A DNA stretch of 64,000 bases, taken from assembly GCA_036172245.1 (NCBI GenBank), contig JAYWIR010000003.1:4340001-4404000 (forward strand), written 5' to 3'. The notes under the pieces are model-generated. The model did not search any database. It was given only the letters and a program-made list of their open reading frames with translations, and was not told the DNA's origin. The stretch is from Raillietiella orientalis. Its lineage: Eukaryota. Shown one piece after another: positions 11,742-64,000 of the stretch. The translations under genes were made by a program, and so were the position numbers. The first letter of the stretch is position 1, and every line of letters starts with the position of its first letter.

Positions 11742-12995
11742 CTAAATCCGCGCCCTTTCGACGTCGGAATCGCGGTCCCTCGCCGTCAGCTCCCAGCATT
11801 CTGAGATTTCGAAAGAGAAAAGGACTTCTCGACTACTAGGGGGCCCTTCTGAGAAACTCCTTGCCGGCAAGCAGCTGGATACCCGGATAAACAGGAAAGG
11901 GAAGACGTTCCATTGAAAATCTTGATCATGGTCGGGATAACCTGGAGTGACACCTTTAATGTCGCAGAACCCAGTTTTAAAGGGCAGTTTTAAATGAGAT
12001 CTGCCTATGATGTGGTGGGTATTAGTGAACCCTGTCTGGACAAGCCAAAGAAACAGGGAACGCAGGAAGAGTCCTGAAGCTGCCCCGCCGCGAACATAGG
12101 TCGCTATGTGCGACGAGAAACGCGAATCGGACAGCCCACAAGCTGCTGGCACCCTCCGAAGTCCCCCTCAGCAGAGATGACGCGTGTCGAGCGGAGCCTC
12201 CTCGCGTATGGTTGAAGCCCGTAGCACCCGAATGACCTCGACCTATCTCGCCACCTCAGGCGAGTGGCAAACCCCGACGATAAAGCTCCTGCACTGCCAG
12301 GTCCACGAGCGCCACCACCGGCTCCACTCCGGGAAGCAGAACACGCGCTGCGTTGGGTCACGGAACTCCGTTAGACGCCCATCGGATTCCATGAAAGCGA
12401 CCCGGTTGCTATGGAGGACTGCGGGGCTGTGGCAGTCGTGCGGGTCGCAATCCGCGAAGGAGAGTGTCGCCTGTCCAGGCTACCGGTTCTGGAGATGGGT
12501 GAGTGGGTGACGCTCGAGCGTCCAGACGGCGCTCAACCCAACCACCGAGACAGAGCCGGCCCTGCCTCGGGCATTCCCGTCGACCGTTGTTCCCGCCTCC
12601 GGTGAATCGTGAGCTTCCTTCCCCGCCGTCCTGGCGGTGCCTTTTCCTTCCTGTTCCTCACTCCCTTCCCCTGCCTTCGGAGTCGGGAGGACAGCAAGCG
12701 GGGGAACGGGAGACTTCGCAATGTGGATGGAAGCCGGCACAAAGAGTCAGGTTGGTTCGAGAGCGCGGTGGCTGCTGAACCCTTTTGCCTGGAAACCGGA
12801 GACTTTTCTTTCGTGATCACGTGGTGCATGCTCGAGGAACAGAACGGCATCCAGTCAATGAAACCCCTGAGAGCTGATTGATATTCCTGGCAGTCGGCCA
12901 GGAATACGTCCTTCTTAGTGGAGGGTGACTCTGCATGGGAGGAACCCCTGTCCACTGATTTTTGAAAGTGCCAAAATAAATGATTTTAAAAGCAT
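11742..12995 (+). mobile_element. Decayed LINE: ORF1 end, endonuclease start and putative 3' end
   Basis: 'IGQPTSCWH' (ORF1 GQPxTC), 'TIKLLHCQV' endonuclease-like start, AATAAA at ~12975, 10-bp hairpin at 12882-12906. Confidence 0.45.
12048..12735 (+). repeat. ~0.69-kb near-identical direct repeat, copy 1 (copy 2 at 40572-41260)
   Basis: Sequences and translated ORFs (12184..12510 vs 40709..41035) are almost identical, with few substitutions, mostly at the edges. Confidence 0.97.
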
Positions 12996-17000: not shown

Positions 17001-18216
17001 GGGGACTCCTCAGATACCTCAGTGAGATCGCTACTCCTGAGAGCAAGCGCGGCTCGGGAGCCGAATTTATCAGAGCTGTGCGTCTCTCAGACAGAGGAGG
17101 GAGAGCATCCAAGATTTCCCTTTGGACCATACGAGGTCATCGTTCATGAATGTGCAGTTCTCCGGATTACATCCCGTTTATCTCCTTCCCACATTGGTCC
17201 CGATTCCAGAGTCCGATCTCAAAGAAATCAAGTGATTTCACAGTTCAAGAAGCGCGCATTCCTCTCCTCCTGGAGGAGTTCCTCCAAAGACAAAAGGAAG
17301 GGCCAGATATCCATCTGGCCCTTCCTGTTGTCTTCTGGATTCTTGCGAAAGCGCCACTTTCAGGAGCTTAGAAGGAGAGAAAATCAACACGAATGATGAT
17401 GGTTCTCGTGGTTTCCTGGGTGAAGATGCATGCCGAAGAGACCAAGGGGATGGAAGCTATCGTCAGCTGGGTCCCTGTGGGTTCCTCGGACGACTGCTCC
17501 CCCTGCGTGGCTCCTTCCCAGTACGCCTCCTCCCGCTGCCGGGATTCTGCGTAACCCACCCTGGAGCTTTCGAAGGCGGGACGTGCTTTCGCCGGCTTCG
17601 CAATTAGGCGCAGGCGCGCCACGACCTCGTGCATAGTTCGGTTTGCTAAGTTGCATGTCCTGGGGGCGCAGCGAAATTTTGAGGGTCCCCTCCACCCTTC
17701 CTTCCCAGCCAAAGGATGGCATGTCATGGCTGCTGCCAGACCAAGGCACGCGCTTCAGAAGGAACACGCGCGCGTGGCTCTTTGCGACGGATCGAAAGAC
17801 AACCTCCGAGGAAACCGCAGCTGGCGAAGGCGCGTAGATCACTCGGCTAGACTTCCTTCCTCCGATCACTCGACCTTGAAAGAGTGGTGGAGACAGAGTC
17901 AGGTTTCTGGTCGGAGAGATCAGAAGGCCTGTGGTGGTCACCAAGTCCTCTTCCTTTCCTTGGGAGAGCAGCAGCTGACTTTGATTTTCCGCGACCTCGA
18001 AACCGCAGATAAATTCCTTTAGGCGGATACCTTCTCTGCCTCCTCCCTGCTCTCCCAGTCGATTGTTCCGACTGACCATTCGTTCCCGGAGAGACTGGGA
18101 CTGAGTACCAAAGAACCATTCTCCTCCTAATAAGGAAAAGGAGGAGGGGGGTATCACGAAGCTCTTTGACGCTGTGCGCGCCATCCGAGAGTGCGTTGAC
18201 TTCATCAAGTTATAGG
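14040..18216 (-). mobile_element. Near full-length but heavily decayed L1/Tx1-like LINE body (ORF1 + ORF2); its leader lies at 19392-19512 and 20230-20750
   Basis: Motif remnants in the expected order: ORF1 start 'MMKSTHSRMARTASKSFVIP', 'IIRVDFLSF*AP' (EN), 'SKQRGCSQNSLPMF' (RQGCPLS), 'CLAADVDGF' (YADD), 'PGCSFGKRQC' (zf-RVT). Confidence 0.6.
17295..17326. repeat. Perfect 14-bp inverted repeat, 4-nt loop
   Basis: AGGAAGGGCCAGAT-atcc-ATCTGGCCCTTCCT. Confidence 0.95.
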
Positions 18217-19391
18217 TTCACACCCGGGTTCGCCGGATCGTTTATTTCAGGAATAAGCATATATTGGTGGGGCCATAGGCCCTACAACGTCCGAAAAAAA
18301 GTTCGGGGCCTACCGAGTGACCGGCACTCAGGTCGGCGAGGTTCGGCTCGGCAGCGAAGGGGGAAGGCACAAACAAAAGCAAAAACAAAAAAACACTATT
18401 TACAAATACAGGGGGGCCGGGGAAGGGATCACATTTCGCTGGGGCCGTCCTCTACATCTTTTCCAAGATGTCGGCAAGTTCCATCCGGATACGTCCCAGA
18501 TGGGGTCATCAGGCTGCCGTCCTCAGGGAACCCCGGGCGAAGCAGATGGCGTCCCTATCGTGCTGTTCACCAGTGGCGTTGCTCCAGACCGCCACAATCC
18601 CATGTAGGCAGCAAAGGGCTGCTAGGACTGCAGCAGGTGAAAGAGCGTCGCTCACAAAGAGGGAGTCTCTGGGAGCGTTCGTAGGTGCACCTAGGGCCGT
18701 TGCAAAACGCAACACAGAGGCCGGAGGGCAACACAGTCAAGAAGCAGGTGAGGGAGGGATTCCTGTGCCCCGTACCTGACACAATTCGGGTTCACTGTCC
18801 CCTTCGTCCAGTGAGATCAACGGGCGCTGCTGGGGATTCTCCAGTGCAACACCAGAAACGTCGACTCCTGCCACTTCAGAGGGAGGGCCTGGGTATTCCT
18901 CAGCACTGGGGACCACTCGAGTTCTTCCAGAGGGATGCTCAGTAGCTTGCCCCAGCGCAATAGTCCTTTCGATGGGGCACTTGGGGTCGCAGCGTCAGTT
19001 AGCTGGCCAGTGGTCCAACCACCTTGCTCTCTCTTTATTACAGAGATCCTACATCGGACCTCCCATTTCGCCGGCTGCCTACTGCCCAAGTGCTTCCTAA
19101 GGTAGGGCAGAGCCGCGGCTAAGGAAGTCATCTCGGAACACGCACGCGAGGCGAGGGAGCCAGGAGGGAGAGGCTCAGGGAACCAGGAGTTGCGGCAACT
19201 CCTGTCTCCTTCCTTGTTCTGGGCCCATGTGTGAAGGCTTTCCTGCAACCAGGCAGTACCATTCGCGGGCCGGCAGGAGATCCAGTTGTTCATCCTGGTC
19301 AGCTTGGTCACGCGCCGGAGCTCCAGCCCTCAACGGAAAAGGTGCCGACGTTGGCGTTGCTCCAGGAAGATAGACAATTCCGCGCAGCCGC
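18217..19391 (-). mobile_element. 5'-truncated Tx1-like LINE insertion with 15-bp target-site duplication
   Basis: TCATCAAGTTATAGG at 18202-18216 and 19392-19406. ORF2 C-terminal motifs 'TAWLQESLHTWA' and 'WTTGQLTDAATP' are shared with 24000-25290 and 63480-64000. AATAAA near the 3' end (~18241-18246). Confidence 0.88.
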
Positions 19392-19512
19392 TCATCAAGT
19401 TATAGGGGGTACCCAGGGAGGGACCACCCTATGAATCCAGGAATGCTCCGGAGTAAAAAGTTCGCTTGACGCTTGATAGGAACCTCGAAGGGAAGCCTAT
19501 TCCCGCTTGTCC
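19392..19512 (-). mobile_element. 3' part of tRNA-headed leader, copy A
   Basis: 'caagttatagggggt...ggagggaccaccctatgaatccaggaa' matches 27396-27445 and the reverse complement of 63212-63257. Confidence 0.8.
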
Positions 19513-20218
19513 CCGATTTTCACCTAGAGGTGCCGGGGCGTTTCTCAAAATTAAAAAAAAACTCACGTATTGTATTAGGGCGCGTGGTCCGACCACATTC
19601 CGTTTGTTCACGAGCCTGGAAGGTCACCGGTAAGAAGATAGGCGAGGATCCCCTCGAAAGCGAAGACAGACAGGAGAAAAGAAAAAGAAAGAGTAAATAA
19701 AAATCTTTGGGAGAGTCAAGAAGGGATCACAGTCCACCGAGGGGAATCCCTTACATCATCTTCCGGGTGCCAGCTAGGTCCGTCCGAATAGGTCCCAGTT
19801 GGGGCCCTCTGGTCGCCATCCGCAGAAAGCGAACTGCGAACTGGACGGCGTCCTTCTCTTTTTTTCCTCCGTCGGCTTCGCTCCAGGCCCCGCAATCCCG
19901 CGGATGCAGCGAAGGGTTGCTGGAGCCAAGGCTGGCTGCAGCGCATCCCGAACAAAGAGAAGACGTGAAACGTCCCTGGGGGTGCCAACCAGGAACTGGA
20001 GGGTCGTTCGGAAACGTTTCCACAAGGGCCGTAGGGCAACGCAGTCCACAAGTAGGTGTGGGATGGAGGATTCCCGTTTCCCGCACCTGCGACATTCCGG
20101 ATTCGTCTCCCCAGCGTCCTGCGATGTCGTCGGGAGCTGCAGGGAAGACCCCAGTGCAACAGCAGAAGTACCGACCCATGCCGATTCAGGGAGAGAGTGC
20201 TGCCGTTCTTGAGCACCG
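19513..20218 (-). mobile_element. Tx1-like LINE 3' end (zf-RVT + 3' UTR); left arm of 706-bp inverted duplication
   Basis: 'CRRCGKRESSIPHLLVDCVALRPLW' is a canonical zf-RVT; near-identical to the reverse complement of 21476-22181. Confidence 0.9.
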
Positions 20219-20229
20219 GGGCCCTGCGC

Positions 20230-20750
20230 TAGGAATACCAATCAGCCGCCTAATTGTCTCCGAAGGGAACCTCAAAGGGAGCCTCTTCCTTATTCTGGAG
20301 GGGGTCACTTCTCGTTTCTTCTCCGAAGGGAACCCGCAAGGGAGCCGCTGCTTGTTCATCTCAAAGGGCGCTCCCCGAAGGGAGCAGCGCCCTTGAGAGA
20401 CGCAACCCCCCGGAAGGGTAACAACTAGTCCCATGGCGCGCGGTGGAGTGGGACCGCGAAGGGAACCGACTCCGTTTTCACAACCGCAAGGTAACCGGCT
20501 CCTTGATTTCTGGGGCAAACCCATAGGGTCAACTTCCAATCCAGGCCAATCAACGGGAGTGACCACAAGCATCAGGCTTCCACCAGTGCCACGCCCTAAG
20601 TCTTTCGGCGTCATTCTTCGTGTGGGACTCCGAAGTCCACGACGCAGCCCATTCTCGGTGTTGATCCCTCCCTCCTCGAGCAAGATTCGAACCCGCGACT
20701 CGCGGTGCCACACGCCGAGACAGCAGCCATGGGGCCGCCAGCGCGGGCGG
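20230..20750 (-). mobile_element. tRNA-headed leader, copy A (5' part)
   Basis: B-box GGTTCGAATC (complement at 20684-20693), conserved core 20500-20547, GCTCCC-TTCG-GGGAGC hairpin (20370-20385). Confidence 0.8.
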
Positions 20751-21470: not shown

Positions 21471-21475
21471 AACCT

Positions 21476-22181
21476 CGGTGCTCAAGAACGGCAGCACTCT
21501 CTCCCTGAATCAGCATGGGTCGGTACTTCTGCTGTTGCACTGGGGTCTTCCCTGCAGCTCCCGACGACATCGCAGGACGCTGGGGAGACGAATCCGGAAT
21601 GTCGCAGGTGCGGGAAACGGGAATCCTCCATCCCACACCTACTTGTGGACTGCGTTGCCCTACGGCCCTTGTGGAAACGTTTCCGAACGACCCTCCAGTT
21701 CCTGGTTGGCACCCCCAGGGACGTTTCACGTCTTCTCTTTGTTCGGGATGCGCTGCAGCCAGCCTTGGCTCCAGCAACCCTTCGCTGCATCCGCGGGATT
21801 GCGGGGCCTGGAGCGAAGCCGACGGAGGAAAAAAAGAGAAGGACGCCGTCCAGTTCGCAGTTCGCTTTCTGCGGATGGCGACCAGAGGGCCCCAACTGGG
21901 ACCTATTCGGACGGACCTAGCTGGCACCCGGAAGATGATGTAAGGGATTCCCCTCGGTGGACTGTGATCCCTTCTTGACTCTCCCAAAGATTTTTATTTA
22001 CTCTTTCTTTTTCTTTTCTCCTGTCTGTCTTCGCTTTCGAGGGGAGCCCCTCCTATCTTCTTACCGGTGACCTGCCAGGCTCGTGAACAAACGGAATGTG
22101 GTCGGACCACGCGCCCTAATATAATACGTGAGTTTTTTTTTAATTTTGAGAAACGCCCCGGCACCTCCAGATAAAAATCGG
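21476..22181 (+). mobile_element. Tx1-like LINE 3' end; right arm of 706-bp inverted duplication
   Basis: ORFs essentially identical to the left arm (21468..21920 vs 19774..20241); zf-RVT motif. Confidence 0.9.
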
Positions 22182-23969: not shown

Positions 23970-25294
23970 GGAAAAACCTCCGGGGAATTTATTAGAAGAA
24001 ATAATTAAAAAAATACATTTATGTACATACTATACTACAAAAGACTCATGGAACCTGACGAACACCGGTACGCAGACCGGCAAGGCCCATTTTGGCAGCG
24101 AAGAAGAGAGAAACAAAAACAAAGAAAACAAGCAAACGAAAAAAAGATGGGAAAGTTTTACTCGGGTGGGGGAGAATAAATGAAGGAGACGTCCTCTGCA
24201 TCCTGTCCAAGATGCTGGCAAGTTTGCTGCGGATGTTGCCCAGGTGGGGCCATCTCGTGGTGGTCCTCAAAAGAGTTTCCGACCAGTGGCGTCCCTTCCA
24301 TTCTGGTATCTTCCTGCATTCCGGGCCGCCACGGTCCCACGAAGGCAGCAGGGAACTGCGAGGGACGCTGGCGGCAATGCGGCACGCGCGAAGAGGCGTT
24401 CGAAAATGTCCCTGGGGCCTCCCACTGGGATTCTAATGGTCGTCGCTAGGCGATCTCAAAGGAGTCAAGTGGGCAGCACGGTCTAGAAGCAGATGCGGGA
24501 GCGTTTCCCTTTCCCCGCACCTATCCCACTCCGCAACCACACTCCTCCGTGTCCAGTGGTGGAGGCGCGCTTTGCATGGGATTCTCTAATGCAAGACCAG
24601 CAACACCAACTCCTGACGCTTGAGGGAGAGGGTGCAAGTGTTCGAGCACGCTGGGGGCCACCCTATGTCCTTCGGAAGGATAGCGAGCAGCTCGCCCCAG
24701 CGTAGATGACCTTGGGGTGGGATTCGGAGTTGCAGCATCCGTGATTTTCAGAGTTGTCCACGCATCCAGAAGTTTCCTCCTTTTTTCAATGCAGAAAGTC
24801 GCATTCCACGTTTCTGGATGGTCGCTGCCCCTTGCTTTCCCTAAGGAGGGCAGCACCGGGGCAAAAGAGCTAAACGAAGCCCACAGCATCTTGCGTGAGT
24901 TGCACACCATCTCTTCCAGCAACTGACGTGCGCATCTGCCTCGTCTCAGACAGGCGAACTCCGCCTCGCTCGAGCCGTTGATCTTTCCCCATACAAGAAA
25001 TGACTCTTGAAGCCAGGCAGTGCAGTTCGTAGGGAGGGAGAGATCCAGATGCTCTCCTCTACCAAGACAATCACCTGCCGAAGTTGATAGCAGTAGAAGG
25101 CTAGACTTCGCGGGTTGGCGACGAGAACCGGAATCGGTCCGTCGCGGCCGGCTGCCCTCTTGGCGAGGAGGCGTGCTGGCGCGCATCAAGGCTTGGTACG
25201 CAACTTCTCCTCAAAGTCTTCGAAATCGGAGCTGACTCTCCACCCGCTCCAGCCCTCACCCAACAGAGTTGAGTGCGGGCTCGACGCTTGAGAG
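23970..25294 (-). mobile_element. 5'-truncated Tx1-like LINE (ORF2 C-terminus + 3' UTR)
   Basis: 'DRCGERETLPHLLLD' zf-RVT (~24480-24530), 'TAWLQESFLVWG', 'WTTLKITDAATP', U-rich 3' UTR and AATAAA (~23986-23991). Confidence 0.82.
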
Positions 25295-25895
25295 CCATTT
25301 ATTTCCATTTATTTTTCCATTTATTTCCATTCCCATGGTGTCCCGGCTTTGGCAGGTGGCACCATGCCTCAGGGGATCCTTATTTCCATGGCCGCCGTCC
25401 TGCGTCCATAGCAACCAAGACGTTTCACGGGCTCTGATGAGCCTAAACCCAACACGTTTGGTTCACACCACAGCGCCAGTTCTGCTTACCAAATGGACCC
25501 ACTGGGGCACTCAGGGACCCGAAAGTCCAAGGATCAGTGTTCAGGCAAGCCAGACCCCTCATCCATTCTAAGTTCGAGAATAGGTTGAAGGGTCACTGAT
25601 CATTCGCTTGACCGAACGAGACTCCGTTCGGAACCGCGCTTCGATGAGCGCCTGCCATCCGGAAGGAAACTCCAGAGGGAATCTGCCATTGGACGGTTCG
25701 GCCCTACGACCGTCAGTCTCCTTCGACCAACTCGCCCGATAGGATAGCTGAGTACCTTCACCAGGGCTCACCCTCGGGGTTCGTCCTGGCCGGTCAGAGT
25801 TGAACGCGCCGAAGGGCGTAGCACTCAGGGACGAGGACCCTGTCCGTCGCCTCGCTTGAGGTAAGGGCAGGACGAGATTGCAGCCGGACATCAGG
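25295..25895 (-). mobile_element. Candidate SINE-like retroposon with 28S rRNA-derived body, 3' stem-loop and (AAATAAATGG)n tail
   Basis: Tandem CCATTTATTT x~3.5 at 25295-25331; stem CATGGTG/CACCATG (25334-25340 / 25360-25366); 28S-like body from 25382. Confidence 0.65.
25382..25810 (-). pseudogene. Diverged large-subunit (28S) rRNA-derived fragment (domain II, about the D3-D5 region)
   Basis: Colinear antisense-28S landmarks: 'atttccatggccgccgtcc', exact CGCCAGTTCTGCTTACC (LR6 primer site, 25474-25490), 'gagaataggttga', 'atcattcgctt', and 'atccggaaggaaactcc' (LR5-like site with mismatches). Confidence 0.88.
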
Positions 25896-26709: not shown

Positions 26710-27398
26710 ACAGAGACCGGGGGGCTGGGTAGCCGCTGGCGCTGCGTGGCGAAGGAGGGAAAACGTTGGGCTGTTTCTGCCTGACGAGGCGTTTTGACCC
26801 CTTCTTGCGCTGCTGTCTCCCTTGTTGGAGGCGTGGCATCAGTTCACTTCCAGGAGGAAGGAGCAGCCCCACTTCCACCCCCTCCTTCGTTTCCCCCAAG
26901 AAAAAGACCCCCCTCCAACACCGCGAGGCAGCGTTCAGAGCGATTCCAATCACCTTCCGAAAGCGCATACACGGGGGTCGCGCGAGAGGTTCCCGCGCAG
27001 ATCCGGGGTCACCGGCGCACGTCCTGGAGTTGCCCTCGCAACAGCACCGCCTTTCGACGCCAGCTGAAAGCGCCTCGCGCGCGCGTCCTCTCTGAGCCCA
27101 GCGGTCGATGGGCGGGAGTGCGGGCGAACTCGCTCGGCGGCTAACGTGCCACGCATTCTCCCGCGCCAGCATACACGGATCTGGTTGCCAGGCGCCGCTT
27201 CCGCCGATGCCGGTGACGCAAGGTACCGTGTAAACCGCAAGAGCTGATTGAATGCGCCCGAGAGATGAGTGTTACGGACAGGTTAAGCTCCTCTGGAGAG
27301 AGGTCGCGGTCATCAGGTGGTTTAGTGGAAAGGGGGGGGGAGGTCACGAAGCTCGTTGACGCTGTCCACGCCATCTGAGGGTGCGCATGACTCTTCAA
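26710..27398 (-). mobile_element. Decayed LINE ORF1 directly downstream of leader copy B
   Basis: '(YNL)KSHAHPQMAWTASTSFVTSPP' is homologous to '(YNL)MKSTHSRMARTASKSFVIPP' at 18208; knuckle remnant 'CHASNKGDSSAR' near 26820. Confidence 0.55.
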
Positions 27399-28030
27399 GT
27401 TATAGGGGGTAACCTCGGAGGGACCACCCCATGAATCTAGGAAGTTCCGGGGGAAGGAGTCCGTTCCTCTTACACTTGCAAGGGAACCTCCTCCTTGTTC
27501 TCTCCGGAGGGATCCCCCAAAGGGGGCCGCACCTCATTTCTTCTCCAAAGGGAACCTGCACGAGTACCGCCTTTTGTTTACTCCTCTGAAGAGAATCCCG
27601 AAGGGATGCTTCCCAATTTCTCTGAGGGGCGCTTCCTCGAGGGGAGCGGCGCGCTTCTTGCAGTCCGGAGAACCAAACCCCCGAGGGGGGTATCAAGCAG
27701 CTCTATAGCGCGCGATGGAGTGTCCTCCCCCTTAGGGGGGAGGGAATGGCTCCATTTCCACAACCGTAGGGGAACCGACTCCTTGATTCCTGGGGGAACC
27801 CCATAGGGTCAACTTCCAATCCCGGCCAGTCAGCGGGAGCAGCCGGGGATTTAAGGCTTCCTCCAGTGCCGCTCCCGAATAGGCCGACCAGCTTCGTCCC
27901 GCGCGAGGGACTCGAAACCCATGAAACACCTCCCATTCTCGGCGCCGATTCTTCCTCACTCGGCTGAGATTCGAACCCGCGACTCGCGGTGCCACGCGCG
28001 CGACCGCAACTCAGGCAACGTCGGATGGCG
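27399..28030 (-). mobile_element. tRNA-headed leader, copy B (uninterrupted)
   Basis: 29 nt identical to the copy A head (27967-27995 = 20683-20711); core 27780-27827; terminal block 27396-27445. Confidence 0.82.
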
Positions 28031-40399: not shown

Positions 40400-43050
40400 C
40401 CTAGCCGACCGTGGGCGGCGAGAGACCTTCTTCACCCACCGGAAAGGGAGACGCGGGAGCACCGCCGTATGGAGAGGCTTCGTTCCTCCTCCGACGAGGT
40501 CCTTCCCATTGTGAGGAATCTCCCTGAAGGAGGGAATGCGAAAACGGTGGTGAGCTCTTCCCGGCCAGACGAAGAAACAGGAAACGCAGGAGGAGTCCTG
40601 AAGCTGCCCCGCCGCGAACATAGGTCGCTGGGTGCAGACGAGAAACGCGAATCGGACAGCCCACAAGCTGCTGGCACCCTCCGAAGTCCCCCTCAGCAGA
40701 GATGACGCGTGTCGAGCGGAGCCTCCTCGCGTATGGTTGAAGCCCGTAGCACCCGAATGACCTCGACCTATCTCGCCACCTCAGGCGAGTGGCAAACCCC
40801 GACGATAAAGCTCCTGCACTGCCAGGTCCACGAGCGCCACCACCGGCTCCACTCCGGGAAGCAGAACACGCGCTGCGTTAGGTCACGGAACTCCGTTAGA
40901 CGCCCATCGGATTCCATGAAAGCGACCCGGTTGCTATGGAGGACTGCGGGGCTGTGGCAGTCGTGCGGGTCGCAATCCGCGAAGGAGAGTGTCGCCTGCC
41001 CAGGCTACCGGTTCTGGAGATGGGTGAGTGGGTGACGCTCGAGCGTCCAGACGGCGCTCAACCCAACCACCGAGACAGAGCCGGCCCTGCCTCGGGCATT
41101 CCCGTCGACCGTTGTTCCCGCCTCCGGTGAATCGTGAGCTTCCTTCCCCGCCGTCCTGGCGGTGCCTTTTCCTTCCTGTTCCTCACTCCCTTCCCCTGCC
41201 TTCGGAGTCGGGAGGACAGCAAGCGGGGGAACGGGAGACTTCTCACTGTGGATGGAAGCCTGCCATGGTGCCTCCAGGCGCAAGATTTCCTGGAGATGAC
41301 GTGGGTGCAGATCTCGGTGACGGAAGCAAAATTCCGTCCAGGAGATGCGCAGAAGGATCCCATGGCAACAGCCGCCTATCTGCACCTGGTTCAGTGGAAG
41401 AATCTCCGGAGAGGGAAGCGAAGAAACACGAGTTCTGGGTGTGGAGCCTGGGAAGTGGATGACCAAAGGCCTTCGGTCGGGTCCGTTCCAGCCGATGCCA
41501 GATACTGGATCGGGAATCGCGAATGCACGCTGAATCCCTCTCGGTTCACGACCGTTCCGACCTGCCCCAAACTCCCGGGAGGAAATCAGCATCTCGGAAT
41601 TTTCGAGAAAGAAGGCGAAGAAATGAACTTGGGCGTTCTTTGAGGCATTTTCGAGTTCCAGGAGCCAGGATCCACAGAATTCTTGTAGCCCTGGAGCTTG
41701 TGAGTTGTCAGGCATCGTCGCGAGGTTCTCCAGAAAGGGCATTCAGGAAGATCAGCACGAAAAAAATGGTTCTGACGCATCCTGATGTCGAGTACTTGCT
41801 CGCCCCTCGTGCCATTTATCAGGGAAGACTACTTGATGACGCGGAGACGACCATCAGTGTGCGTTGCGAGACCGATGCTTGTGGACCTTCCTTTGGGGAG
41901 GAATACCATCCAGGCGCTGGATGGACGGCAGTGCTTGCAGCCCGTCGCTTTTGATTGAGTCTGGCGTGTGGCGTGGATGGAGCCTTTGCCCGTGAGACCT
42001 CAGGGGCCGGTGACATCGTTCGACTGTGCACCGCAGGGCAATGCACATTCGAAGGTCACCTGCTTCAGCACTCGCATCCCGAAATTCCAGAAATGCAGCC
42101 ACGATCGCGCGCCAGGTAGGAAAAGATTCAGGTCAGTTTTCAAGTTCGATCAGGTAAACATCCTGAGGAAGGATCTACTATCACTAATCTGGTGGTCCAG
42201 ATGCCGTTCTACCGGAGCGGCGACGGCAGACTCCGCTTTCGAGAGTGCGGGCTGGGGGAAGTCTCGTGCTGGGGTGTCCCGGTGACGTTGAGAAGGCAGA
42301 GAAGTCGGGAGATGCGATCCTAGAAATCGTACCGAGAGGGAAATCGGATTTTGCGCTGGGGGTGAACGAGCAGGATGAATAACGCGTTAAAAACCGGGAT
42401 GGTGGTGCATCCAGTTCTCCGCGTTCCAGTAGTGCTATCAAAAGAGTCTGATCGTTCCTGTAAGAGGTATTCGTTTCAGCATGGCACATGCAAGAAGAAT
42501 AAAACGTTGCTTCACTCGTGCACTCTATCGTCACCAGCTCGTGGTAGGACCGAAGATTCGGAGAGAAACTCGGGTTCAAAGTTCTGGAAAACACCTCCAA
42601 GATGCAGCTGAGAAGCATAGGATTGCGATGAAGGAAGACATCCTGGCAACGCAACATGTCTCGCCAGGACCACAGAACTCTTGCAAAAATCTTCAGAGTA
42701 GAACTCCGAACTCCAGTCCAGTTTCCCATGAATCTCTCCATCAGAAATCGCTTGAATAGGAGCGTCCCTTCCGAGAGTGAGCAGTCTGGTTCTAGCTCCG
42801 TTTGCAAGGGTCTCGAACACCACGGTATCCTCAGGTTGCATCTCCTGATTGGACATCTCAACGAATGAGTAGGGTCCCGATCAAATCGATGGCCCTGCAG
42901 GCCAAAGGCAATCGAGAACGAATGAGGAAATCTCAAAGATCTATCCTTCTCCTGGATCAAGAGGCCACCTCATCATAGGTGCATCAGTGACGGTTGCGAA
43001 GCGAGGAACCGGATCGGCTGCACTCCGCATGATGAGCCCGGAACCTGTGC
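40400..43050 (+). mobile_element. Decayed LINE (ORF1 end, endonuclease, RT)
   Basis: 'IGQPTSCWH', then RT 'RAPGRKRFRSVFKFDQVNILRKDLL', 'ILEIVPRGK', 'RSVPSESEQS' in KAPG / LIPK / RGVRQG order. Confidence 0.55.
40572..41260 (+). repeat. ~0.69-kb near-identical direct repeat, copy 2
   Basis: Matches 12048-12735. Confidence 0.97.
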
Positions 43051-59061: not shown

Positions 59062-59560
59062 AGGGGTTCGCGTTGGCCGTCCCGTGGCTGCAGTCTCCGC
59101 CCTTGGCACCGAGGGTCACGGGTTCGATTCCCGCCCGTGGAAGGAAGGATCGACGCCTAGAAATGAGGCGTGCGTCGTGGGTTTCAGTTTCCCCCGCAAC
59201 ATGACGCTGGCTGACCTATTTAGATGCGGCAGTGGTGCAAGCGGGAAACTCACGACTGCCCCCGGTGGCCGGGGTTGGAAGCTGACCCTCTGGGGTTCTT
59301 CCAGCAATCAAGGATTCCTTCGGAGTTTTCCTCTTGTTTCGTGAAGGAAGCCGGTTGATGCCCCCCTCAAGAGGTTGCCTCTCTAGAAGCACGCTGCTCC
59401 CTTCGGGAAGCGCCCTTCAAAGAAATTGGGAAGCGTCCCTTCGGAGTTCTCATCCGAGGAGAACCAGCAAGGAGAGAGAATCCCTTCCGGATCCCCTCAG
59501 GGGAGGAAATGAGGTGTTCCCTTCTGGAGGTTCCTTCGGTGGGAACAAGGAAACTGGGTG
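59062..59560 (+). mobile_element. tRNA-headed leader, copy C
   Basis: T-arm-like CGGG-TTCGATT-CCCG (B-box 59121-59131), core 59267-59314, GCTCCCTTCGGGAAGC at 59396-59411. Confidence 0.8.
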
Positions 59561-62100: not shown

Positions 62101-62609
62101 CGCGACCACCTCCTGTAGATAAGCCGTCCTGAGCTCTCGACAGATGGTTTCGCGCTTCTCCAGCGTCCCATCTCCCTCTGCGCAGTTACGAGAAAGTGGT
62201 TGCTAGGAAGGGCGCAGCTCTCGTGGGTTCCGCACATAGAAGTGCAGAAGGCAGAGCGGAGATAGCAGCACCTTTTGGTCGTCGCGCCGTCTACACGCGT
62301 CCACCTTCATGTAGGCCAAGGAGAACCCCTCCTGGTTATCGGCGATAAAGCATCATCGGAACAACGAGGAGGAATGCTGCACGCAGCATCTGGGAAAGCG
62401 GGGAATAATATATCCCTGACAGAAGGGCACTCTGATCAGGGGAGGAGGACCACGACCCGAATGCAGTCGTCGCACCCTGTTTCCAGCCGCTTCCTGTTTC
62501 TGCAGGGAGGGAGGGATATCAGCAGTATTCCAGCGCCAGATTCGCGCAGCCTCCTGTCAGCACAAGATGCGCGAAGCAATGAAGACCGCTCTTGCGGAAG
62601 GCTCCGAGT

Positions 62610-63257
62610 TTGCGGCCGCATAGCTGCGGTCGCCGCGCGCGCCGTGCCAAGCGTGGCAGGTTTGAATTCCGCCTGGGGAAGGGTCGGTGCCGAGAACGGG
62701 GGGTGCGTCGTGGGTTTCGAGTCTACCCCCCCCACACACACACAGAATGACGCACGCTGGTTGGCCTGTTCGGGTGCGGCACTGATGGAAGCAGACCGAT
62801 GCCCCCGTTGACCGGCCGGGAGTGGAAGGGGAACCATCAGAGTCGGTTCTTCCAGAAATCAAGGAACCCTTCGAGGCTCCCATCCGGGAAGACCCCCAAC
62901 GCGTACCACGGACCTGGTTGATACCCCCCTCGGAGGATCTGCTCCCCAGAGTGTCGAGAAGCGCGCTGCTCCCTTCGAGGAGCGCCCTCCAGAGAAAATC
63001 TGGAAGCATACCTTAGGGGTTCTCTTCAGAGGAGGAAACAAGGAGCGGATCCTTTCCGGGGCCCCCCTCAGGAAAAAAATCCAGGAGAGAAGAAAATGAG
63101 GAGCGGCTCCCTCCGGGTCATCGACCCCTCAGGAGAGAGGAAGGAAGAGGTGGTTTCCTTAGTAGTTCCCCTACGAAACGTAAGAGGAACGGACTCCTTT
63201 CTCCTGAGCCCTTCCTGGATTCATAGGGTGGTCCCTACAGGATTGCCCCTTTAACTT
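62610..63257 (+). mobile_element. tRNA-headed leader, copy D
   Basis: Degenerate B-box GGTTTGAATTCC (62659-62670), core 62814-62865, hairpin 62968-62983, terminal block 'ttcctggattcatagggtggtccct...cccctttaactt'. Confidence 0.75.
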
Positions 63258-64000
63258 TTTCTCCCCCTGCCTTTTGTTTGCTGCCCACGGAGTAATATTA
63301 AAAGACCGACGAAGGACCTCCTCAGAATCGCCTTCTGGGGTACAGAGAGGCTCTGAGTTTTCCTGAAGGACTTGCGCGCCCCGCGTTTCGACGGAGGTCT
63401 CGGCCTCCCGACGCTGGAGCACCTCAAGCGACAGCTCCAGTAAAACACGCTTGCCCTAGTGGCGAAGCTTTGAAGCGCGAACTGGTGAGAGTCCTCACGA
63501 TAACTGGTAAAGCGATCCACCGGCTACGCAGGGCTGCCTCCGTTTCTGGAACGGCGGCGTAGACGCAACGTGTCCCGCTGCGGAATGCAGCTCCGGAGAG
63601 TGGCCTAACTGACCAGGGCCAACACCTGGATCTCCTGCCGGTCCGTGGATGGCAGCTCCTGGCTGCAGGAAACCGTTCGCACGTGGGCCCGAACAAGGGA
63701 GAGAGCCCGCAGATGCGGCAGCGACTGCTGCACTCCCTTCTATAGCAACCGCCCGCTGCAGGACGTCATCGTGCAGCCCATCACGCGTGAGTGGACGCAA
63801 AGAGCCTCCCTAACCGCGGCGCTGCTCTCCCTCAGGGAACACCTGGGCAGTAACTAGCCGGCCAAATGGGAAGTCAGTTGCGAAATAGTCTTCGGACGCA
63901 GGAAACAGGTAGCTGGATCACGGGACAGCTCACGGACGCTGCGACCTCAAGCGCCCTACCGCAAGGACTATTGCGCTGGGGCGAGCTACTGGGAATCCCG
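63258..64000 (+). mobile_element. Tx1-like LINE ORF2 C-terminal region (runs off the window)
   Basis: 'DLLRIAFWG...VFLKDLRAPRFDGGLGLPTL', 'SSWLQETVRTWA', 'WITGQLTDAAT'. Confidence 0.85.

Follow-up and report, generated by a model that had tools for sequence, protein, structure and literature searches.

Probable Independent Insertions of L1/Tx1-Like LINEs at One Nucleotide of a High-Copy SINE-Like Repeat

We analyzed a window of 64,000 nucleotides (G000:C3:4340001-4404000), part of a 210-Mb assembly. A Pfam search of 23 ORFs of the window gave 0 matches, and Rfam over the same stretch returned only a degenerate LSU rRNA fragment (25240-25678, minus strand), which adjoins a LINE 3' part at 24300-25206. 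The window hosts copies A, B, C and D of a dispersed repeat, and in copies A and D a LINE 3' part interrupts the repeat at one and the same site, here called S1 (Table 1).

Table 1. Features of the repeat copies and their LINE inserts, in window coordinates (SINE, the host repeat; TSD, target site duplication).
Feature	Position	Strand	Remarks
SINE copy A, right-hand part ("ORF1 start" of the first-pass annotation)	18111..18216	-	blastn to other SINE copies; no shared gene downstream
Insert A, 3' TSD copy (15 bp, SINE site S1)	18202..18216	-	identical to 19392-19406
Insert A: 5'-truncated, decayed L1/Tx1-like LINE 3' part (ORF2 end, 3' UTR, terminal hairpin), A family	18217..19391	-	tblastn, relatives, clustering
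Insert A, 5' TSD copy (15 bp)	19392..19406	-	identical to 18202-18216
SINE copy A, left-hand part ("leader A" of the first-pass annotation)	19392..20745	-	B box at 20684-20693
Second LINE 3' part, other family, elsewhere in SINE copy A	19517..20253	-	10-bp TSD, one mismatch (19507-19516 / 20254-20263)
SINE copy B	27327..28008	-	empty S1 site at 27392-27406
SINE copy C	59068..59513	+	stops before S1
SINE copy D, left-hand part	62604..63257	+	5' TSD copy at 63248-63257
Insert D: 5'-truncated LINE 3' part, D family	63258..64000, on to window-equivalent 64739	+	1,482 bp
Degenerate TSD copy, then right-hand SINE part	after insert D, to about 64855	+

Insert A (1,175 bp) aligns by tblastn to residues 899-1108 of an intact sister ORF2 and is flanked by the perfect 15-bp TSD that had been described earlier, its two copies being identical. 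It is 5'-truncated, because most of its 29 closest relatives carry on upstream of its first base. Clustering, a tree and a sliding comparison all assign it to the A family; the idea that it is a D-family copy overwritten by conversion was ruled out, as it is A-family over its whole length. Copy B, with S1 intact, is the empty site it had been taken for.

In copy D, too, the ORF2 3' part begins where the first-pass annotation had placed it and lies in the same orientation. That annotation proposed reading beyond position 64000 for a duplicated site followed by ORF1: a duplicated site, albeit degenerate, does follow the 3' end of insert D, and behind it the host repeat resumes for about 115 bp, but no ORF1 follows. 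Copy D is an insertion and not the internally deleted derivative offered as an alternative, since insert D comes to an end and is succeeded by the second site copy and the right-hand part of the SINE. The two inserts had also been assigned to the same family; they are indeed loosely related LINEs, but they are 72% identical and belong to different groups.

The host of these inserts, described at first as a LINE leader joined to the start of ORF1, is instead one non-coding repeat of ~0.9 kb with no ORF1 after S1. Past S1 the homology of copies A, B and D stops within 60-80 bp, neither blastn nor tblastx revealed a gene shared by the three beyond that site, and tblastn with a real ORF1 from these LINEs gave no match over the window plus 6 kb. 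Similarly, the 30 repeat copies retrieved with copy B have about 0.8 kb in common and nothing beyond. A B box near the 5' end is clear in the alignment, where the A box matches only loosely; most of 25 heads have a sharp 5' start, and nine tails have a defined end and are A-rich. Only two of these nine tails had a head within reach, and one 15-nt A-rich repeat was found. A 26-nt motif adjoining S1 occurs 2,095 times in the genome at three or fewer mismatches (control, 0), and the calibrated copy number is about 4,400 (binomial) to 6,300 (11/33 copies pass). Non-coding, dispersed and high-copy, with a defined 5' end and an A-rich tail, the host is to judge from its sequence probably a SINE-like, tRNA-derived repeat, though Rfam and folding give no tRNA signal: Rfam found no tRNA in the heads at 3/3 loci at E values up to 5, and no cloverleaf appeared in three folded heads. 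Like tRNA-derived SINEs (SINE2), it combines a sharp 5' start, a B box, a non-coding body and an A-rich 3' end with thousands of dispersed copies; unlike them, it has a head without an Rfam tRNA score, a tail without a match to the LINE 3' ends sampled, and a length (about 0.9 kb) that is long for the class.

The inserts, with their 5' truncation and variable TSDs, bear the hallmarks of target-primed reverse transcription (TPRT), and all sister families have a 3' hairpin in common. The intact sister ORF2 (L186, 1,208 aa, F family) contains the APE endonuclease (PF03372) and reverse transcriptase (RT, PF00078) domains, and its best match in the PDB is human L1 ORF2p (E 2e-44; R2, 1e-14); the matches of inserts A and D lie in its C-terminal part, at 38-47%. 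On these domain and similarity data, an ORF2 with APE and RT that is closest to L1 places the inserts in the L1 group. Membership of the Tx1 clade appears likely. The F-family ORF2 shares no more than 25-31% identity with the best relatives in the databases, and the best RT match (31%) is BAC82609.1, a zebrafish "pol-like protein" that we take to be one of Kojima and Fujiwara's Tx1-clade elements. The zf-CCHC matches of ORF1 (E 0.0015 and 0.005) are weak and under the Pfam cut-off.

Some old LINE copies on the same contig, separated by 3-415 kb, are nearly identical in the middle and have unrelated flanks, and several pairs have divergent ends. Such sets (L093/L094/L095, L099/L105, L100/L101, L109/L110, L104/L107, L076/L077, L023/L024, and insert A with L002) carry what reads as the signature of frequent local gene conversion. 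A 709-bp inverted pair in the window (19513-20221 and 21473-22181; 98.6% identical, 1.25 kb apart) probably comes from the same process. The window also contains a 692-bp direct pair (12048-12738 and 40572-41263; 98.6% identical) with unrelated flanks. Elsewhere, an exon at L189:7707-8984 (minus strand) encodes a GATA zinc finger, presumably of the animal type, so that the genome probably belongs to an animal.

Genome-wide, the junction pattern of a D-family end, 1-5 nt and then S1 was found 31 times (backwards control, 2), and the junction query retrieved further joints between LINE ends and the SINE. A single D-end junction was found at a CC-starting 10-mer that is as well conserved as S1 and lies about 30 bp upstream of it in the SINE, so that the flanks of the family are enriched for S1 (31 vs 1). 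Sixteen matches were listed as S1 ends, one of them false, leaving 15. In 11 of these 15 the left SINE part stands directly before the LINE, at 11 different distances (478-1,499 nt), and most of the 11 have a recognizable 8-15-nt TSD; a twelfth end with a left SINE part was seen separately. Junctions were re-read from the SINE side, automatic TSD calling being unreliable where the 5' boundary was misplaced. Among 12 further loci of the 31, two have the clean order SINE-TSD-LINE-TSD-SINE, three a shortened left SINE and one a long duplication, four are without a left SINE, and two form a tandem; some of the 31 junctions could accordingly stem from 3' transduction or deletion. S1 copies are scattered in the D-family tree (15 changes for 15 rows), and a single sub-lineage of such copies was not seen. 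Although the tree is star-like and poorly resolved, this dispersal over it indicates that the S1 copies are independent events.

The tandem (G000:C29:2166772-2175115) opens with a D piece; next comes a full-length D element, bounded on both sides by the same 13-bp TSD, so that the D copies have one regenerated 13-bp TSD in common. The full-length element (G000:C29:2166785-2175115; L246, L252, L249, L240) is decayed and lies inside this 13-bp S1 TSD; it has its own 5' region, ORF1 and ORF2, and a block of pieces from other LINEs is nested in the ORF2, which it interrupts.

To weigh the preference for S1, D-family ends were drawn blind to their flanks. Six of 49 lie at S1 (4/29 in a sample without the query, 2/7 in one without duplicates and copy D, and 0/13 in one made of the first 30 loci of a set of 100), L136 and three unparsed ends in this tally having been classed by eye; among matches 31-100 of that set, three more S1 ends were seen by eye, one of them a repeat. 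About 13/49 ends are in the SINE at any site. The 43/49 copies away from S1 occupy mostly CCAA-like sites, and the other targets of the family comprise a further position in the SINE, ahead of the B box, unique CCAA-like sites, and a place in the ORF2 of another LINE that is hit repeatedly in antisense. A two-sided matrix built from 15 unique-site insertions with TSDs, whose sites are decayed, predicts at most 0.1% of insertions genome-wide at S1 (for 10,000 SINE copies), as against the 6/49 observed, and about 2% of within-SINE hits, as against 6/about 13. S1 ranks only about 25th within the SINE under this matrix, so a short motif does not explain the preference, and neither the downstream-only nor the two-sided matrix accounts for S1. 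Decay of the sites would weaken the matrix, though hardly by a hundredfold. S1 is a preferred site of the D family among several and not an exclusive one, and 6/49 is below the rule of Kojima, by which a target-specific LINE has over 20% of its flanks in one sequence type. The A family is a sister that rarely uses S1: insert A is the only S1 case among its best 30 copies, ends with a related terminal motif were at S1 in 0/71 cases among the matches listed (mixed families), and insert A is a stray hit. What had been proposed as element-on-element site specificity thus persists as a preference for S1 (31 vs 1), with a SINE as the host and a partial hold on the site.

Family and target co-vary. 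For the E family (183 exact ends) the target is a single antisense position in the SINE, some 130 bp beyond the B box. By blastn, 24/30 of its loci (L203-L232) are inserted in this way, which exceeds Kojima's 20%, and 33 clear and 5 probable SINE insertions were counted by eye in a further 70 matches; upstream of most E insertions lie the remaining part of the SINE and a TSD. It is the most SINE-specific family seen. The target of the F family and its kin is the GDFN endonuclease motif of other LINEs, which they enter in sense between the codons for D and F; they account for about 37/100 of the matches listed, by eye. The F family itself is young, 5.9 kb long and arranged in head-to-tail tandem arrays (L186:2120-8050, with an intact ORF2 at L186:4101-7724; G000:C33:192535-204347; G000:C26:862027-867976), and its own codons at the GDFN motif differ from those of the target. 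Yet another family recurs in antisense at a position close to the end of a LINE ORF2, and 6/30 of the closest A relatives (L013, L015, L016, L017, L020, L028) share one antisense ORF2 site in related LINEs. Further families (L141, L142, L151, L168), inspected by eye, lie antisense and adjoin conserved endonuclease or RT motifs of other LINEs. The SINE tail was rejected as a specific target of the TCATC family: about 5/60 of the ends listed were there by eye, and a short motif suffices. We tentatively entertain, at somewhat less than even odds, the reading that this Tx1-like radiation partitions mobile elements as targets in a kind of food chain, in which families settle at their own nucleotides of the SINE, sense or antisense, and younger ones at the GDFN codons of other LINEs, including those of the D family, from which their own codons at that place differ.

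Inserts A and D probably arose independently by TPRT, as L1/Tx1-like LINEs inserted at a single nucleotide (S1) of a tRNA-type SINE with a high copy number; the D family prefers S1 among several sites, and insert A is a stray hit. The bottom strand would be nicked just before CC(T/C)(A)TAAC, a second nick would fall about 8-16 nt downstream, and the new copy would usually be 5'-truncated. The B box-to-S1 distance varies from 517 to 780 nt in 20 empty copies, and the position of the first nick is constant. Presumably the sequence recognized by the APE endonuclease extends some way around the nick, and an abundant, dispensable repeat may be favored as a harmless landing place; in such elements the endonuclease is the main determinant of the target, according to PMC4494074.

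Specificity might come from the RNA instead, if source elements in S1 were transcribed into the downstream SINE and the resulting tail paired with the nicked S1 in the manner of R1Bm, the endonuclease needing a short motif only. The full-length D element in its S1 TSD is consistent with such read-through priming, as are four of the 12 further junction loci, which bear a 14-70-nt tail of S1-right sequence and lack the left SINE, the outcome expected of 3' transduction; R1Bm is a precedent in that its accurate reverse transcription requires downstream target sequence (PMC7265360). We nevertheless think this unlikely, given that S1 copies form no sub-lineage in the D tree (poorly resolved as it is), that no convincing TSD was found outside the SINE tails, and that insert A hit the same base while its family showed no S1 ends among the matches listed (mixed families). 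A short motif, combined with a high SINE copy number and the purging of genic insertions, could also create an apparent hotspot: the D targets have a GNCAC^CCAA-like motif in common that S1 fits in part, and decay lowers the information measured. The roughly 100-fold excess over the matrix and the single junction at the neighboring control site make this very improbable, and selection on genes cannot produce the surplus at S1 within the SINE.

Tethering by SINE-bound Pol III factors would set the position of insertion, and it is true that several families use the SINE and that one site adjoins the B box. The nick, however, tracks sequence and not distance from the B box, which argues against such tethering, and hotspots of the same families in LINE coding sequence, devoid of a B box, are just as sharp; we give the idea very little credence. 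The first-pass annotation took S1 for the place where a LINE leader ends and ORF1 starts, a target that would give the family the promoter of that leader. Inserts A and D do lie in the orientation of their host, the head of which has a Pol III B box, and one full-length element is in S1. This model of promoter capture is unlikely, and indeed highly so: no ORF1 follows S1, all inserts tested (12/12) have runs of at least five T upstream of the 3' hairpin that should stop Pol III, the most SINE-faithful family enters antisense, the full-length D element comes with a 5' region and an ORF1 of its own, and the inserts are without most of ORF2. As for a single ancestral SINE-LINE chimera spread by duplication or gene conversion, or an internal deletion giving rise to copy D, local conversion between LINE copies is common in this genome; but all 5' junctions and lengths differ, A and D diverge as members of different families, and D has its right-hand SINE part, so that this origin is next to inconceivable. 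The best reading is Tx1-like, endonuclease-guided insertion into abundant repeats.

LINEs that target other elements are known. As described by Kojima (2015, PMC4494074), the crocodilian families Tx1-Mar (target, Mariner-N4_AMi), Tx1-8_Crp, Tx1-4_AMi and Tx1-9_AMi are directed at Mariner, LTR and Harbinger elements and microsatellites. To that extent they resemble the present families, with a fixed place in another transposon and, within a single genome, sister families that differ in target, whereas the targets here are a SINE and the coding motif of another LINE. According to the same source, Tx1L of Xenopus laevis inserts in Tx1D, a piggyBac-type DNA transposon; it is likewise a LINE with an APE endonuclease that uses a single site in a non-autonomous mobile element, but here the target is a Pol III-type retroposon, in which several families occupy several sites, sense as well as antisense. 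The L1-type Zepp and ZeppL of green algae target their own copies and cluster once per chromosome (PMC8226300); nesting in LINE copies and arrays of 3' ends recall the F-family arrays, although the copies here differ in being dispersed and in that the F family enters the endonuclease gene of another family. A literature search that missed most subscription papers and Repbase found no SINE-targeting LINE. What would be new is a SINE hit at several fixed sites by several families, here with genome-wide counts.

To the LINE targets named in these papers, which are DNA transposons and LTR elements, SINE sites and the catalytic codons in other LINEs would be additions. Moreover, with close families that have different 10-15-bp targets and one intact ORF2, the origin of APE sequence specificity becomes directly testable. 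If the food-chain reading is true, target choice would be evolving by competition between retrotransposons, and these families would form a natural series for mapping how the specificity of the APE endonuclease changes.
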